DNA of 64,000 nucleotides from a virus. This document shows, piece after piece, positions 5,082-57,222 of this stretch. The position numbers and the translations under genes were made by a program. Under the pieces are notes generated by a model that was not told where the DNA came from, searched no databases, and saw only the letters and a list, made by a program, of their open reading frames with translations. Numbering within the stretch: the first letter of the stretch is position 1; the number at the start of each line of letters is the position of its first letter. The stretch covers positions 28,761 through 92,760 of IMG/VR virus record IMGVR_UViG_3300019760_000006; one strand, written 5' to 3'.

Positions 5082-5155
5082 TGGTGCTCCTGGAGAGAAT
5101 TGAACTCTCATTAATCGCTTATAAGGCAACCGTTCTTCCTTTGAACTACAGGAGC
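5082..5155 (-). tRNA. tRNA-Ile, anticodon UAU (reads AUA)
   Basis: GCTCCTG/CAGGAGC acceptor stem, discriminator A and encoded CCA; anticodon loop CT-TAT-AA; T arm GAGAG-TTCAATT-CTCTC. Confidence 0.9.
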
Positions 5156-11373: not shown

Positions 11374-11402
11374 TTGACAGGCAATAAATTTCAAGGTATA
11401 AT
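11374..11402 (+). promoter_or_regulatory. Consensus sigma70 promoter (junction A)
   Basis: TTGACA-17 nt-TATAAT. Confidence 0.9.
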
Positions 11403-11735
11403 ACTACCTATTAAACAAACAAATTATGAAACTATAAATATATTAGCTATAAATTATATGCCTTTGGCATTAAGTTTATCTTATAAATTTTATTCTTTTA
11501 ATTGTTATTATTAATAAAAAACAAAAGAATAAATTATATATAAATAATTTTATCTCTTTATTTTCTTTTATTAATAAAAACTTAAAGAGATAAATAATGT
11601 TACTTATATATTATATGTCCGTAGGACATAAATATTGTGTTAAAGATTTTATTCCTTTGTTATTTATTATTAATATTAAATAAAGGAATAAATATATAAG
11701 TAACAAATTATATGTACGTAGTACATAAATTATAT
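11403..11735. repeat. Structured non-coding element, copy A (three triloop hairpins, three 45-46 bp inverted repeats)
   Basis: ATGCC-TTT-GGCAT, TATGTCC-GTA-GGACATA, TATGTAC-GTA-GTACATA; TTTATNNNTTT-N23/24-AAANNNATAAA three times; homologous to 49309..49580. Confidence 0.85.
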
Positions 11736-11770: not shown

Positions 11771-12106
11771 ATGTTTAATAAGATAAAAATAATCTATAAT
11801 ACATTGTTGTTTATTTCAAGGTATGTTGAAGATTACAACCAATCTAAAGAACATATAAAAAGAGTTGAAAGAGATTTGTATATCGTAAGAGAAGAATATA
11901 GGAGATTGTATTTAGAACACACAAAGATTAAGAAAGAAATAAAAGCAATACAAAAGGATTTAAAACCACCTTATGATGGTGATGTTAGAGTTGTTGATGT
12001 GTTTTGTTCTGTTTGTGGTAACTACATCAGGTCTGTTGAGAGTTTAGATGAGGGTGATATTTACTTTTGTTCTAAATGCCAGAATAATATGTGCAATTAT
12101 AAATAA
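11771..12106 (+). CDS. Coiled-coil plus Zn-ribbon hypothetical protein
   Basis: CSVC...CSKC; AAGGAG SD. Confidence 0.7.
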   Translation: MFNKIKIIYNTLLFISRYVEDYNQSKEHIKRVERDLYIVREEYRRLYLEHTKIKKEIKAIQKDLKPPYDGDVRVVDVFCSVCGNYIRSVESLDEGDIYFCSKCQNNMCNYK

Positions 12107-12149
12107 TAAAAGGAGATATGTTTTTGTAATACAAAAATAAAACAAGTAT

Positions 12150-12389
12150 ATGAAAAACAATAGAAGTGAAGAGAAGATGACTATGAGAGATTACGATAGG
12201 AGATTAAATGATAGATGTGTGTGTTGTAATGAGTTTTTAAATGAGGGGGGTAGGGATGTTATGTGTGACAAATGTAGAAGAGCTTGCTATGAATCAGACA
12301 ATAATTATAATGATTGGTGTGTTGATAGTGTGTTGGGTTGGAATGAAGATATCAGCTTATCTGATCTGAAAATTGATACATGCTATTAA
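12150..12389 (+). CDS. Small Zn-finger-like protein
   Basis: CVCC...CDKC. Confidence 0.6.
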   Translation: MKNNRSEEKMTMRDYDRRLNDRCVCCNEFLNEGGRDVMCDKCRRACYESDNNYNDWCVDSVLGWNEDISLSDLKIDTCY

Positions 12390-12399
12390 ACATTGATTT

Positions 12400-12480
12400 T
12401 AGGTTGATAGAGAGGTGTTTGTATTGATTGGTGTAAGTGTATACGTTTAGAATAAATATCTTTCTATCAGCTTATTTTAT
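12400..12480 (+). terminator. Long G-U-rich RNA hairpin (terminator or processing site)
   Basis: 12401-12422 pairs fully with 12452-12473 (22 bp, 6 G-U), followed by ATTTTAT. Confidence 0.6.
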
Positions 12481-12666
12481 GTGTTAAAATGGAGATTATA
12501 AATAGATGATAGATTTAATTCTATTGAAAGATTATATTTGGTTTGGTGTTTCTTATATTTATATAAAAATGTATAACTATATTCATAAGAAATAACATAT
12601 TTGTAACTATTTATAACAAAAATAACATATTTGTTATTATTTATTACAAAAACGTAATAAAATAGT

Positions 12667-12695
12667 TGCAATAAATTAATATTCATGATATAATT
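12667..12695 (+). promoter_or_regulatory. Sigma70-type promoter with extended -10
   Basis: TTGCAA-17 nt-TATAAT with TG upstream of the -10. Confidence 0.65.
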
Positions 12696-13070
12696 ATTGT
12701 ATTAATTATTTTGATAAATGAAGAAAGGAAGAAATATGGATGATATTGTTTTAGAACTTAAGAAGTTTTATATTTCAGTTATGAATAATGATAAATTAAA
12801 GATTGAAGATAGATTGGATGCAGCGGATAAGCTAAGAGAGTTTCTTAGTGAATATAATGATGATTAATGATAAAATAACTAAACATCGTAAAAATAAGTC
12901 TATAGAAGAACTTAAAAGAAAAGCTGACAAAGCAAGACGAAAAGGTTGGTTCACAGTAGAGGAAATTGATTATGCTGAAGTAGAGGCAGAATATTTAGTT
13001 AAATTGTTTGGTTATAATAAATAATAATTGTTTGTAGATGATTAATAATATTTAGTAGGAGGTGACGAAT

Positions 13071-49088: not shown

Positions 49089-49278
49089 CAACTATTTTCA
49101 ATCTACCATCATTTTCATGATTTCGTCATAGGTTTTTACAAACACAAAAACAAACACAATTTGTCAACATTGTATATACAATTTAGTGATTATATTTAAC
49201 CACTATGTAAAAAATGTAACAATAATTGTATCACTTTGTGGTAGAAATGTAAAAGTTTTGTAAAACTTCATTATTTTC

Positions 49279-49308
49279 TTGACATACTCCTCTTGACAGT
49301 GATATAAT
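49279..49308 (+). promoter_or_regulatory. Sigma70 promoter (junction B)
   Basis: TTGACA-18 nt-TATAAT with extended TG. Confidence 0.8.
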
Positions 49309-49580
49309 GTATACCATTAATAACAAATAATATGAAGCTATAAATTTATACCTCATATACTATATGCCTTCGGCATTAAGTTTATGTAATAAATTTTATC
49401 TCTTTATATTAATATTAATAAAAAAAAGAAAGAGATAAATAATAAAGTTAATAATTATTGTCCTTCGGACATAAATTATATAGCTTATAAATTTTATTCA
49501 TTTAATTGTTATTATTAAAAAGAAAATAAATGAATAAATTATTAAGTAACAAATTATATGTGCTACGCACATAAATTATT
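49309..49580. repeat. Structured non-coding element, copy B
   Basis: ATGCC-TTC-GGCAT, TGTCC-TTC-GGACA, TATGTGC-TAC-GCACATA alternating with two 45-46 bp inverted repeats; homologous to copy A. Confidence 0.85.
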
Positions 49581-49689
49581 ATCCTAAAAGATATTAAGTA
49601 TAAATAGATTTGTAATAACTATAAGAATAAAAAGGATAGATATAAATATAATATGTATCAATTATAACAATAAAGAAGTATAAAGTAAT

Positions 49690-49766
49690 GAAAGAGATTT
49701 TGTTTTTGTTTATGTTGTATCTATGAAATAGATATGATATGAATGAAAATGAAATCTCTTTTTTTG
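49690..49766 (+). terminator. 34-bp G-U-rich RNA hairpin with T tract
   Basis: 49691-49724 pairs fully with 49728-49761 (8 G-U), GAA loop. Confidence 0.7.
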
Positions 49767-49871
49767 TTTGTGTTATTTGAATGTAATTCTTTTGTAAAAT
49801 GAAATTAATGGTTGTGTTTTATTTTCTTTTGTGATAGGATATTTTTAACTTTAAACAAAAGGAGAAATAAA

Positions 49872-50084
49872 ATGACAAAAGATGTATACGTTTTTGGTAG
49901 AAATGAGTGGGTTTATTGTAAACAACATATGCGACCACACCTAACAGGTTGGTGTACAGTAGATGTTAAAGATAAGGTAGGTCTTGGTATTTCTAATTAT
50001 GTTGGTTCTGAAGAAGATGCTTATAAGAAATGTAGAGAATTTGGTCTGGAATTGTATGAAGATATTAAAGGAGGTTCTGAGTAA
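49872..50084 (+). CDS. Hypothetical protein
   Basis: Start MTKDVY behind AAGGAG; YC.QH.RPH.TGWCTV motif. Confidence 0.7.
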   Translation: MTKDVYVFGRNEWVYCKQHMRPHLTGWCTVDVKDKVGLGISNYVGSEEDAYKKCREFGLELYEDIKGGSE

Positions 50085-54601: not shown

Positions 54602-54963
54602 TTTTAAATGTTTCAAAATCATATGCAGATTCTGTTCCAGATCTTGATGTGGAAGGGTTTGTGAACAGGCTAATAACTTATTATAGAATTGAAAAAGAAA
54701 TTGGTAATAATTTTGATCACATAGATTATATATCTAATTCCCTTGTAATTGAATTTATGAGAGTGGCTATACTGGAAGGTGAGATATCACACACAGATAT
54801 TAAAGTTATTGAAAATGATGTTGAATATCTATTTGATAAAGAAGGAACAATGGGTGTTTTGAATAAAGAAACAAATAAAATAGAAACCAGGTTTCCAGAG
54901 ATATGTGACATATATTCAAATATTCTTTGGAGATTACTTAAAAAATTTGAAAAAAGGAGTTGA
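54595..54963 (+). CDS. Hypothetical protein
   Basis: 122 aa, overlapping the upstream stop. Confidence 0.65.
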   Translation: MLILNVSKSYADSVPDLDVEGFVNRLITYYRIEKEIGNNFDHIDYISNSLVIEFMRVAILEGEISHTDIKVIENDVEYLFDKEGTMGVLNKETNKIETRFPEICDIYSNILWRLLKKFEKRS

Positions 54964-55055
54964 CAATAAAATATTATCCCTGTATATTATGTTCATACTA
55001 AATCACATACAAAAAGATGTGATATGAATGTTTTATACAGGGATTTTTATTTTAT
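54960..55055 (+). promoter_or_regulatory. Promoter embedded in the 5' arm of a long terminator-like hairpin
   Basis: TTGACA-17 nt-TATATT; ATCCCTGTATA/TATACAGGGAT stem plus TTTTATTTT. Confidence 0.6.
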
Positions 55056-55082: not shown

Positions 55083-56509
55083 ATGAAAAAGTTCAGAAAT
55101 ACTTTTGAAATGGAAATAGATATTAAATTCGAAGATGAAGGTAAAGCTATTGAGTGTTATATTAATAGTGATTGGAAAGACGTGTTTTGGGATGTAAATA
55201 GTATAAAAGATTTGTCAGAGGATCTCGCATTGTGTTTTATTAAAACACCAGAGAGATGGTTTTCTGATGGTGATGATAGTAATATTGGAAGATTTGTTGA
55301 AGGTTTTGGCACTTTTATCTATGATGGTAAAGATTCCTATATATTTAAAGACAGGTATGGCAATTCTGGTGGGGATATTACTATAAAAATTAACTCTGAA
55401 TTAGAAATTGTTGATAGTTCAGATATCTATCTTTGGGAGGATTAGAGTGGATTTAGATACTATTTTTCATTGGTCAGTTTTTGTTTCTGGATGTTATTTT
55501 ATTATTCTTTCATCGATTGTCAAAACAAAGAATCTTAAAAGTACGTTAATTTTCAAAACTATACCATTGTTGTGTGGAATTTGTTGTTTAAGTGCTGGTG
55601 CAGTCCTTTTAGGTTTCTTTTAGGTTTTATATAATAGAGAGGAGAAAAATTATTGAGTAAAACAATTATAGATTTACAAAATGTAAGAGACCAAAGTGAT
55701 TTATTTTGGTTGATTTTAGAAAGTCTTCCATACAAAATTGAGTGGATGTCTTATGAAGCTATTGAAAATGTTTTAGATTGTTGTGAAGAAGTTTTTGATG
55801 ATGAATAATTGAAAGGAAGATGGTGATAATATGAAACAAGTTAGATGTAAAAAGACAATAACAATTAGCAACACAGTCTGGCACACTGCTGGTGCTATAT
55901 ATGATGTTCTTTACGAAGATTATGATGAAGATGGAAAGTCATATATCATCTCTTCAAATAATAATGAAGCGCATTGGATTGGTGTTCCTGGAAATAAATG
56001 GTTTGATGAATATTTTGAGGAAATATAATGGAATACAAAAACAAAGCAAGATATTGTAAATATAATGTCAACAGGGGTTGCCATAACATTGTTAATCCTT
56101 TTTGCACATATTCAGATGAAGTGGTTAGCAAGATTAAACTTCCACCTAATATCTACTGGTATAGACACATAGTAGATGAAGAATGTTGTGAAAAGTGTGA
56201 ATGTTTTGAACCAGTCAAGTTGGAGGATAATAAATAATGAATATCCACCCACTATTAAAGGGATCTTATAATAAATCTAAATGTGATGGATGCTCTTCAA
56301 GATGTTGCAATGAAATAGAAGAAGAAGAAGAAGGAAGTGGTGTATGTTGTCAGTTTGTTTCATGTGGACCTAATCCAATGTGTTTTGTTGATAAAGGGAG
56401 GCTTCCATGTCCAAAGTGTATGTTTTGGACAGGTTATGGAAATGAAGATATAGATCTTCATAATTGGAATTTATTAATGTGTAATAGGAAAGAGGGTCTA
56501 ATAAAATGA
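55083..56509 (+). other. String of small hypothetical ORFs (55083, about 55448, 55654, 55831, 56028, 56237)
   Basis: SD-led, tightly packed; several Cys-rich, one membrane protein. Confidence 0.6.
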
Positions 56510-57222
56510 AAAAATATTCTATCGGTAACAGAATGAAAGATAATTATGAAAGTAGAAGTAAATATAAATTGATTAGAAGAATGCCTGCGATCATTAGGTT
56601 AGATGGCAAAGCTTTTCATACAATCACAAGAAGGTGTGATAAACCTTTTGATGAAGATTTGTCAATGATTATGATGGAAGGTATGAAGTATTTACTTGAA
56701 AACATACAGGGAGCTAAGTGTGGATATCAACAATCAGACGAGATTTCAATACTTCTAACTGATTTTGATAAACTAACAACAGATGCATGGTTTGATAATA
56801 GTATACAGAAGATTGCAAGTGTTTCAGCATCAATGCTAACAGCCGATGTAAACTCTAAATGGGATTTTGAAAATAGCTTTAACAGAAAATTTGATAGTAA
56901 TAAATATTTCTTGTTTGATAGCAGGTGTTTTAATATCCCAAAAGAAGAAGTTAATAATTACTTTATTTGGAGGCAGAAGGACTGGGAGAGGAATAGTATT
57001 CAGATGCTTAGTAGAAGCTATTTCTCACATAAAGAATGTCACAAAAAGAATTCGTCAGATCTGCATGAGATGCTTTATACAAAAGGTGTAAATTGGACTG
57101 ACCTTTCTGGTAAATGGAAGAACGGTGTATTTATGTATAGATGTGAAGATAAAAGCATTAAATCAGATTGTGATATCCAGTTTATTAAAGATAATTTTAT
57201 TGAGGGTATGTATCTGAGATGA
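56506..57222 (+). CDS. thg1: Thg1-like tRNA(His) guanylyltransferase / 3'-5' nucleotidyltransferase
   Basis: RMK..YE, RLDGKAFH, KPFD, QSDEIS, FD...QK..S..AS, FDSR, YFIWRQ.D..RNSI. Confidence 0.92.
   Translation: MKKYSIGNRMKDNYESRSKYKLIRRMPAIIRLDGKAFHTITRRCDKPFDEDLSMIMMEGMKYLLENIQGAKCGYQQSDEISILLTDFDKLTTDAWFDNSIQKIASVSASMLTADVNSKWDFENSFNRKFDSNKYFLFDSRCFNIPKEEVNNYFIWRQKDWERNSIQMLSRSYFSHKECHKKNSSDLHEMLYTKGVNWTDLSGKWKNGVFMYRCEDKSIKSDCDIQFIKDNFIEGMYLR

Follow-up and report, generated by a model that had tools for sequence, protein, structure and literature searches.

The gene-free region that we call unit B lies at a switch from minus- to plus-strand genes in a siphovirus genome. It carries an array of two kinds of hairpin, S and L, which has a second copy, copy A, 38 kb away and, judged from its sequence, a true paralogue. 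We conclude that the S/L array is a real, selected and directional element, which belongs to no catalogued family and is so far found in one orphan phage lineage; what is new about it is the modular S/L architecture, not the kind of element that it represents. As to function, we prefer, at a probability of roughly 0.3, the reading that the arrays are cis-acting controls of terminator read-through comparable to nut, put and canT. More broadly, S/L arrays may form an undescribed class of phage RNA, a modular AU-rich 5′ domain of the transcripts with the strongest promoters, working at the RNA level either as a self-contained read-through switch with the zinc-finger proteins of unit A or as a host-protein sponge; we take this prospect seriously, although the odds are somewhat against it.

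The window, the whole stretch of 64,000 nt that was analysed, comprises bases 28761-92760 of a 92.76-kb IMG/VR record with an estimated completeness of ~71%; positions are those of the window unless prefixed L068. The phage, which is also present in several microbial-mat metagenomes, has ~33% GC and encodes a large terminase, a portal, a 2432-aa tape-measure protein, a ribonucleotide reductase, a FEN-type exonuclease, a T7 gp4-like primase/helicase and a family-A DNA polymerase; at the protein level even the closest relatives are very distant.

The two S/L arrays

The features of both units are collected in Table 1.

Table 1. Features of units A and B, in window positions
Feature	Position	Strand	Description
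Copy A	11374..11735	+	promoter 11374-11402, conserved leader, then S-L-L-S-L-S
Copy A modules	S1 11458-70; L1 11488-534; L2 11548-95; S2 11614-30; L3 11647-93; linker + S3 11698-733	+	
Two small Cys-rich (zinc-finger) genes behind array A	11771..12389	+	111 aa (coiled coil + CxxC...CxxC) and 79 aa
Closing hairpin A	12400..12474	+	long, G.U-rich, then U-rich tail; 3′ of both zinc-finger genes
Promoter B	49279..49308	+	TTGACA, 18-nt spacer, TGATATAAT; extended -10; 12/12 consensus match
5′ leader B	49316..49360	+	conserved, mostly unpaired; holds TATGAAGCTATAAAT at 49331-45
S1 hairpin B	49361..49385 (stem-loop 49364-76)	+	ATGCC-TTC-GGCAT, conserved tail TAAGTTTAT
L1 hairpin B	49394..49440	+	11-bp stem TTTATCTCTTT/AAAGAGATAAA; 23-nt AT loop with TATTAATA
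S2 hairpin B	49459..49471	+	TGTCC-TTC-GGACA
L2 hairpin B	49492..49539	+	stem TTTATTCATTT/AAATGAATAAA; two-sided change gives an A-U pair unique among the copies
Linker + S3 hairpin B	49544..49579 (S3 49557-73)	+	linker AAGTAACAAATTATATGT; S3 TATGTGC-TAC-GCACATA; end of similarity to A
Spacer B	49580..49690	+	~110 nt, unconserved, weakly structured, no ORF
Closing hairpin B	49691..49768	+	34-bp hairpin (49691-49761) then U7 (T7 in DNA); predicted strand-specific intrinsic terminator
Weak promoter candidate	49814..49842	+	TTGTGT, 17-nt spacer, TAGGAT, TG in front; by-eye reading, below scan threshold

The order S-L-S-L-S that the earlier note had read in unit B holds at each of its coordinates, and it differs in number and order from the S-L-L-S-L-S of copy A, which has one extra L. 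Three blocks, which that note had described as shared, occur exactly twice each in the window: the leader TATGAARCTATAAAT (49331-45 and 11425-39), the first hairpin with its tail (49361-85 and 11455-79) and the linker with the last hairpin (49544-79 and 11698-733), the chance expectation being 0.00-0.01 for each. The 25-nt S1 block is the same in A and B bar one loop base, and perfectly conserved islands of 18-25 nt stand within a background of ~74% identity. Similarity between the copies runs from the -10 box to just past the last S hairpin, and the DNA upstream of the two promoters shows no similarity beyond that of shuffles; because of these limits we regard the conserved unit as the start of a transcript. 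Each array has ten copies of the motif ATAAAT on its plus strand and a single copy of the reverse complement, with A and T nearly equal in number, a strand bias which implies that the element is directional.

All of the comparative evidence is internal, coming from two arrays and eleven modules. The L-module pattern gives five matches where 0.00 are expected, and when the full 92.76-kb record was searched, unfiltered, with a covariance model of L, the five modules alone came up (51-70 bits; next best 24.9). The earlier note had suggested a search for more copies in the rest of the genome; within the record, the ~71% of it at hand, only the modules of A and B were detected by this model. The stems of the five L modules are Watson-Crick paired in 55 of 55 cells, three adjacent pairs being changed on both sides (U-A/C-G, C-G/U-A and C-G/U-A/A-U), and the observed pairing is reached by no shuffle and no slid register; the number of covarying L pairs taken alone is not significant with five sequences. 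The S stems are perfect in all six cases, always closed by C-G around 3-nt loops of TTT, TTC, GTA or TAC, and the S3 stem has an A-T pair in A where B has G-C, inside an otherwise identical 36-nt block. On this comparison the hairpins are under selection for pairing, and the arrays fold with z-scores of -7.6 (B) and -5.7 (A).

The S and L stems are free of G.U pairs, and it makes no difference to the folding of the arrays which strand is taken, or whether it is taken as RNA or as DNA, so that the stems alone cannot tell an RNA from a single-stranded DNA form. The closing hairpins behave otherwise. That of unit B, which the earlier note had rightly taken for a 34-bp hairpin with a T tract, has a folding energy of -33.2 kcal/mol alone; with its flanks (49685-49770) the values are -35.4 kcal/mol for the plus and -13.1 for the minus strand; that of unit A, with 9 G.U pairs, gives -31.6 and -6.8 kcal/mol respectively. 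Each closing hairpin has 9-10 G.U pairs, and all eight non-Watson-Crick positions of the 34-bp stem in B are G.U in plus-strand RNA. The closing hairpins thus fold well as plus-strand RNA only, their non-Watson-Crick positions being G.U, and this points to selection on a rightward RNA at both units.

Promoters, transcripts and coding content

Perfect promoters of the form TTGACA-N16-18-TATAAT number three in the 92.76-kb record, and two of them drive arrays A and B. The third drives an ORF-free structured region at L068:15555-16060, 13.2 kb before the start of the window, which is ~480 nt long, folds with z = -5.3 and has a GC-rich 5′ domain followed by four short AU hairpins with stems of the TTTCTTTT/AAAAGAAA type; it closes with a hairpin and U6, meets a convergent gene and has no match in Rfam. 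The phage would thus spend its three best promoters on structured RNA predicted to be gene-free, which suggests how much of the non-coding function in genomes of uncultured phages goes unnoticed. Consensus promoters would also make for easy reporter testing in E. coli or B. subtilis.

For unit B we infer a transcription start near 49315-49316. No plus-strand ORF of even 25 aa lies within 49264-49811, a stricter bound than the 60 aa of the earlier note, and the longest plus-strand frame in B reaches 44 aa when TGA and TAG are read through and a start codon is not required. The spacer holds a degenerate AAAGGA...ATG remnant followed by four codons only, and its similarity to the unit-A genes is not significant (score 34; shuffles 29 +/- 4.5). 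Unit A is different: two small genes follow its array, which forms their 5′ leader, with no terminator between array and genes. Unit B, which is ORF-free over ~450 nt from promoter to hairpin and U tract, may give the stand-alone non-coding transcript that the earlier note proposed. Searches of Pfam, PHROGs, PADLOC and the ESM Atlas placed the two small unit-A proteins in no family, and gave no identity for the neighbouring small proteins of the arrays either.

The leader block can be read as a 3-codon mini-ORF, AUG AAG CUA UAA, with no Shine-Dalgarno site (11427-11438 in A, 49333-49344 in B), in which the sole difference between the copies, AAA versus AAG, is synonymous. In both copies the block also carries a -10-like TATAAA some 24-29 nt past the inferred start, a possible site of sigma-dependent pausing. 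The last L loop could pair with the linker as a pseudoknot, over 8-9 bp in both copies, but this is sterically unlikely, the connector being just 3-5 nt long; the complementarity more likely offers an alternative pairing.

Behind the predicted terminator of B, a pattern scan found no promoter of at least 10/12 before the replication genes, and comparing k-mers there for a middle-promoter motif in common was uninformative. The weak candidate of Table 1 precedes the first gene of the replication block (49872-50084). Downstream of the two units, promoters were found at 54960-54988 (11/12), behind B, and at 12666 (10/12; TTGCAA, 17-nt spacer, TATAAT, with TG), behind A. A long plus-strand hairpin terminator (54976-55044, -29 kcal/mol) overlaps the former, inside the replication block. 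Just 5′ of the latter, at 12585-12700, are two direct repeats of ~30 nt (AAATAACATATTTGT...ACAAAAA), which look like an operator ahead of the structural genes.

Control of terminator read-through as the preferred reading

We rank control of read-through first because it explains most features at once. Each array would form the 5′ domain of an early transcript that the host sigma-70 RNA polymerase makes from a very strong promoter; its S and L hairpins, strung together but folding independently of one another, would act in cis on their own transcription complex as lambda nut, HK022 put and Tn916 canT do. The nascent hairpins, alone or with a small phage protein, would carry the polymerase past the long G.U-rich terminator, and the candidate for such a protein would be a product of the two zinc-finger genes behind array A, which are placed like N behind nutL. 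Read-through would then time entry into the replication genes at B and into the ~34-kb structural block that lies downstream of array A; without it, unit B would give a free RNA of ~450 nt. The sequence shows the promoters, the modules with their covariation, the terminators that fold on the plus strand only and the order of these parts; we infer that array RNA is made, that something binds it and that termination is regulated.

The limits of the A/B similarity, the closing hairpins that fold as plus-strand RNA only, the compensatory stem changes and the directional ATAAAT motif speak for this, and so does position. In either copy the array is flanked by a perfect promoter on one side and, on the other, by the first strong hairpin with U tract of a rightward block, and two small proteins are encoded between array and terminator in unit A, none in unit B. 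The early regions of lambda are laid out as PL-nutL-N-tL1 and as PR-nutR-tR1-replication genes (O-P); unit A resembles the former and unit B the latter. Since there is only a weak promoter candidate between the predicted terminator and the replication genes, the same B RNA that is predicted to end at the hairpin could also be a read-through leader.

RNA antiterminators with several stem-loops and lengths of 340-450 nt are described from mobile elements, as canT, conAn2, EAR and put (PMC11658703). Our phage array, of ~330 nt, compares with the 340-450 nt range of canT (Tn916) and its kind, which includes conAn2 of pLS20 (PMC11658703). With nut, put and canT it has in common that there are two copies per genome, 3′ of an early promoter and 5′ of the first operon terminator; that the stem-loops keep their pairing by covariation between copies; and that small genes precede the terminator in one copy, replication genes following it in the other. 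It differs in having five or six modules of two kinds in variable number and order rather than a single fixed two-hairpin fold, and in being extremely AU-rich.

Several observations weigh against read-through control. No boxA (CGCTCTTA or TGCTCTTTAACAA-like) was found in units A and B within one mismatch (8-mer) or three (13-mers), and the boxB consensus is absent from them, the S loops being 3 nt long and C-G closed with no GNRA-like pentaloop. The small A proteins and the neighbours of B matched no N, Q or other antiterminator family in Pfam or PHROGs, in a record ~71% complete. The extended -10 promoter candidate (49814-42) may be enough on its own for transcription of the replication genes, and processive antitermination is not required, because the promoters at 54960 and 12666 restart transcription downstream. 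The hairpins themselves are no proof of selection at the RNA level, since they lack G.U pairs and fold equally on both strands; a GC content of 15-17% is unusually low for structured RNA; a variable module number would suit a platform for loose binding more than one exact fold; and no relative turned up in which conservation could be checked. If read-through control is nonetheless what the arrays do, RNA-based antitermination would extend, in a modular repeated design, to an unrelated lytic siphovirus. To our knowledge it has so far been described from a few lambdoid phages, plasmids and conjugative elements.

A possible transcription-activated origin

The closest rival, which we consider doubtful but not far-fetched, is that A and B are two origins of the same type, at each of which the promoter fires into a 300-nt tract of ~85% AT, the RNA made there serving as primer for DNA synthesis or entering an R-loop; primer hand-over or helicase loading would be organised by hairpins, either of this RNA or of the displaced plus strand. 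As the earlier note had it, array B does sit at a minus-to-plus switch, immediately 5′ of the exonuclease, the T7 gp4-like primase/helicase and the polymerase. Transcription diverges at both array sites, and T7-type replisomes initiate from a promoter with an AT-rich tract. The arrays have 15-17% GC in a 33% GC genome and occupy the two longest ORF-free gaps of the record, and the equal folding of the hairpins as DNA and on both strands fits an origin too. The record yielded no initiator-like protein and no phage sigma factor, and a search for a T7-type phage RNA polymerase gave no match, though control genomes gave none either.

The nearest layout is that of the lactococcal c2-type phages, in which a non-coding region lies between divergent blocks and the PE1 transcript, non-coding and with no ORF or RBS, is needed for replication (PMC7150918). 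Unit B resembles this Ceduovirus arrangement in the non-coding region between divergent blocks, in a promoter with no ORF or RBS behind it, and in a strong early promoter that fires into an AT-rich tract ahead of early and replication genes (PMC7150918). The c2 region is closed by the early promoter PE2 (PMC7150918), whereas here there is the weak 49814-42 candidate, below the scan threshold. From the origins of c2, of T7 and of T4 (oriF and oriG, which form R-loops) the arrays differ in having no sequence similarity to them and in being present twice, 38 kb apart, and modular covarying S/L hairpins have no described counterpart in any of the three.

Against an origin stand the restriction of A/B similarity to the transcribed part, the conserved unpaired leader and the directional ATAAAT motifs, none of which an unwinding element needs. 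There is no DnaA box within one mismatch, and blastn of both arrays against 50,697 phage records gave no match, and hence no similarity to any phage origin region. A switch of GC skew at copy A is no independent evidence for an origin, because it coincides with the change of gene orientation. The record also has other origin-like clusters, at L068:4790-4935 and L068:12560-12920. The first, in a gene-free gap of 565 nt, consists of three iteron-like direct repeats of the TAGACCAAAGTTGGTT type, every one of which is dyad-symmetric in itself, and is a further candidate for an origin or operator region; the second, as we read its sequence, is a cluster of different palindromes with a run of parS-like GTTTCACGTGGAACACGTGG. 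Were A and B origins, the phage would have transcription-primed origins in the style of c2 and T7 with structured covarying modules, and two origins would be mapped for an orphan phage lineage.

A possible trans-acting RNA or ordinary leader, and lesser alternatives

Somewhat less probable, in our view, is an abundant trans-acting RNA whose S and L hairpins, loops and AUAAAU flanks would titrate or assemble a host or phage RNA-binding protein. CsrB/RsmZ and CrcZ act through repeated motifs, and the arrays share with them a strong promoter, a length of ~350-450 nt, an intrinsic terminator, repeated hairpins and paralogues of unequal module number, the last being typical of sponge RNAs. Unit B is a discrete ORF-free unit from promoter to terminator, the loop and flank motifs are kept while the stems covary, and the third perfect promoter likewise serves an ORF-free structured RNA, so that the phage appears to make stand-alone RNAs. 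The arrays are unlike CsrB/RsmZ and CrcZ in being phage-encoded, in having one copy as an mRNA leader, with no terminator before its genes, and in lacking GGA loop motifs: GGA occurs two or three times per unit, mostly within stems, on which ground we reject a CsrB-like RNA. No partner protein can be named for such a sponge, A-rich motifs are expected by chance in sequence of this AT content, and the position of both copies, from promoter to first operon terminator, is left unexplained, a position that read-through control does account for.

An ordinary 5′ leader, concerned with stability, processing or translation through nuclease sites or a repressor operator, from which unit B has lost its ORFs, seems to us improbable. 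Array A is indeed the 5′ UTR of two genes, the remnant in the B spacer could be what is left of a coding start, and processing hairpins are well known in phage early RNAs, the RNase III sites of T7 among them. Yet in B compensatory changes particular to this copy preserve the hairpins, though no gene precedes the terminator, and the B spacer has no significant similarity to the unit-A genes; moreover, the first 45 nt are unpaired, so that the array is no protector of the 5′ end, and the L stems, with their 11 bp, are short for RNase III.

We give very little weight to an RNA antitoxin array like those of type III toxin-antitoxin or AbiF systems, or to a phage decoy of one, although a promoter followed by repeats, a terminator and then a gene that lacks a clear promoter in front is the order of ToxIN and RCd22-AbiF as well (10.1101/2025.04.15.648962), and AAAU follows every hairpin. 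ToxI, CptI, TenpI and RCd22/abiF share this order with unit B, but here the units are diverged and of two types (64-77% alike, with a period of ~97 nt) rather than near-identical tandem repeats of 34-50 nt, and copy A has no terminator before its genes. Rfam gave no match even at E = 10, its antitoxin and abiF motifs included, and the downstream proteins match no ToxN, AbiQ, AbiF or PADLOC family. In the place where a toxin (ToxN, AbiQ, CptN, TenpN or AbiF) would follow the B terminator there is a 70-aa protein with no match in PADLOC, Pfam or PHROGs, the next gene being the FEN-type exonuclease. The antitoxin mimic suggested by the earlier note accordingly fails on repeat identity, on Rfam and on downstream toxin families, and we reject a type III antitoxin array for its need of near-identical repeats and a toxin family downstream.

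Two further families were considered and rejected. VIPR vrRNA arrays consist of 9-16 tandem YNNGG pentanucleotides accompanied by a Vipr protein (10.64898/2026.04.26.720920); here no run of at least three YNNGG exists on either strand, and GG occurs three times per array. A CRISPR array or an RNA anti-CRISPR mimicking its repeats fails as well, the stems differing between copies and no CRISPR-DR model matching inside the arrays. That the arrays have no function of their own and are a duplicated promoter region in drift, its palindromes born of AT-rich low complexity, is barely credible: chance hairpins do arise easily in such DNA and the element is confined to one lineage, but five L-pattern matches against 0.00 expected, 55 of 55 paired cells with compensatory changes, conserved islands in a ~74% background and the fold z-scores of both arrays all speak against it.

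Distribution and neighbouring genes

Relatives of the arrays were sought widely. Exact-pattern scans of IMG/VR gave no match for the S1 block and 20 for the linker, all of them chance matches in coding DNA, and the L pattern gave 11 chance matches there, in AT-only giant-virus DNA. A scan of JGI metagenome contigs for the S3-type block returned 18 chance matches, one of 185,579 prokaryotic species genomes (one per species) for S1 returned three, inside genes, and Rfam gave nothing relevant to the arrays at gathering score or at E <= 10. The neighbouring genes led no further: a search of 5.8 billion proteins gave no homologue of the exonuclease with more than 30% identity, and the distant IMG/VR relatives of this enzyme have no comparable gene-free gap; no relative was found for a 630-aa neighbour protein, and TerL has one distant relative.

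The same phage is present in four further microbial-mat runs, in which the array shows no difference and hence adds no covariation. Other mat contigs, from runs X4 and X5, match positions 49484-49653 only, at >=80%, with unrelated sequence on both sides; these may come from a related phage, or from a third copy located in the part of the genome that the record lacks. Among other genes of the window, one inside the replication block (56506-57222) matches the PHROG family of Thg1-like tRNA-His guanylyltransferases (E = 1e-80), and the minus strand carries a tRNA-Ile(UAU) gene at 5082-5155.
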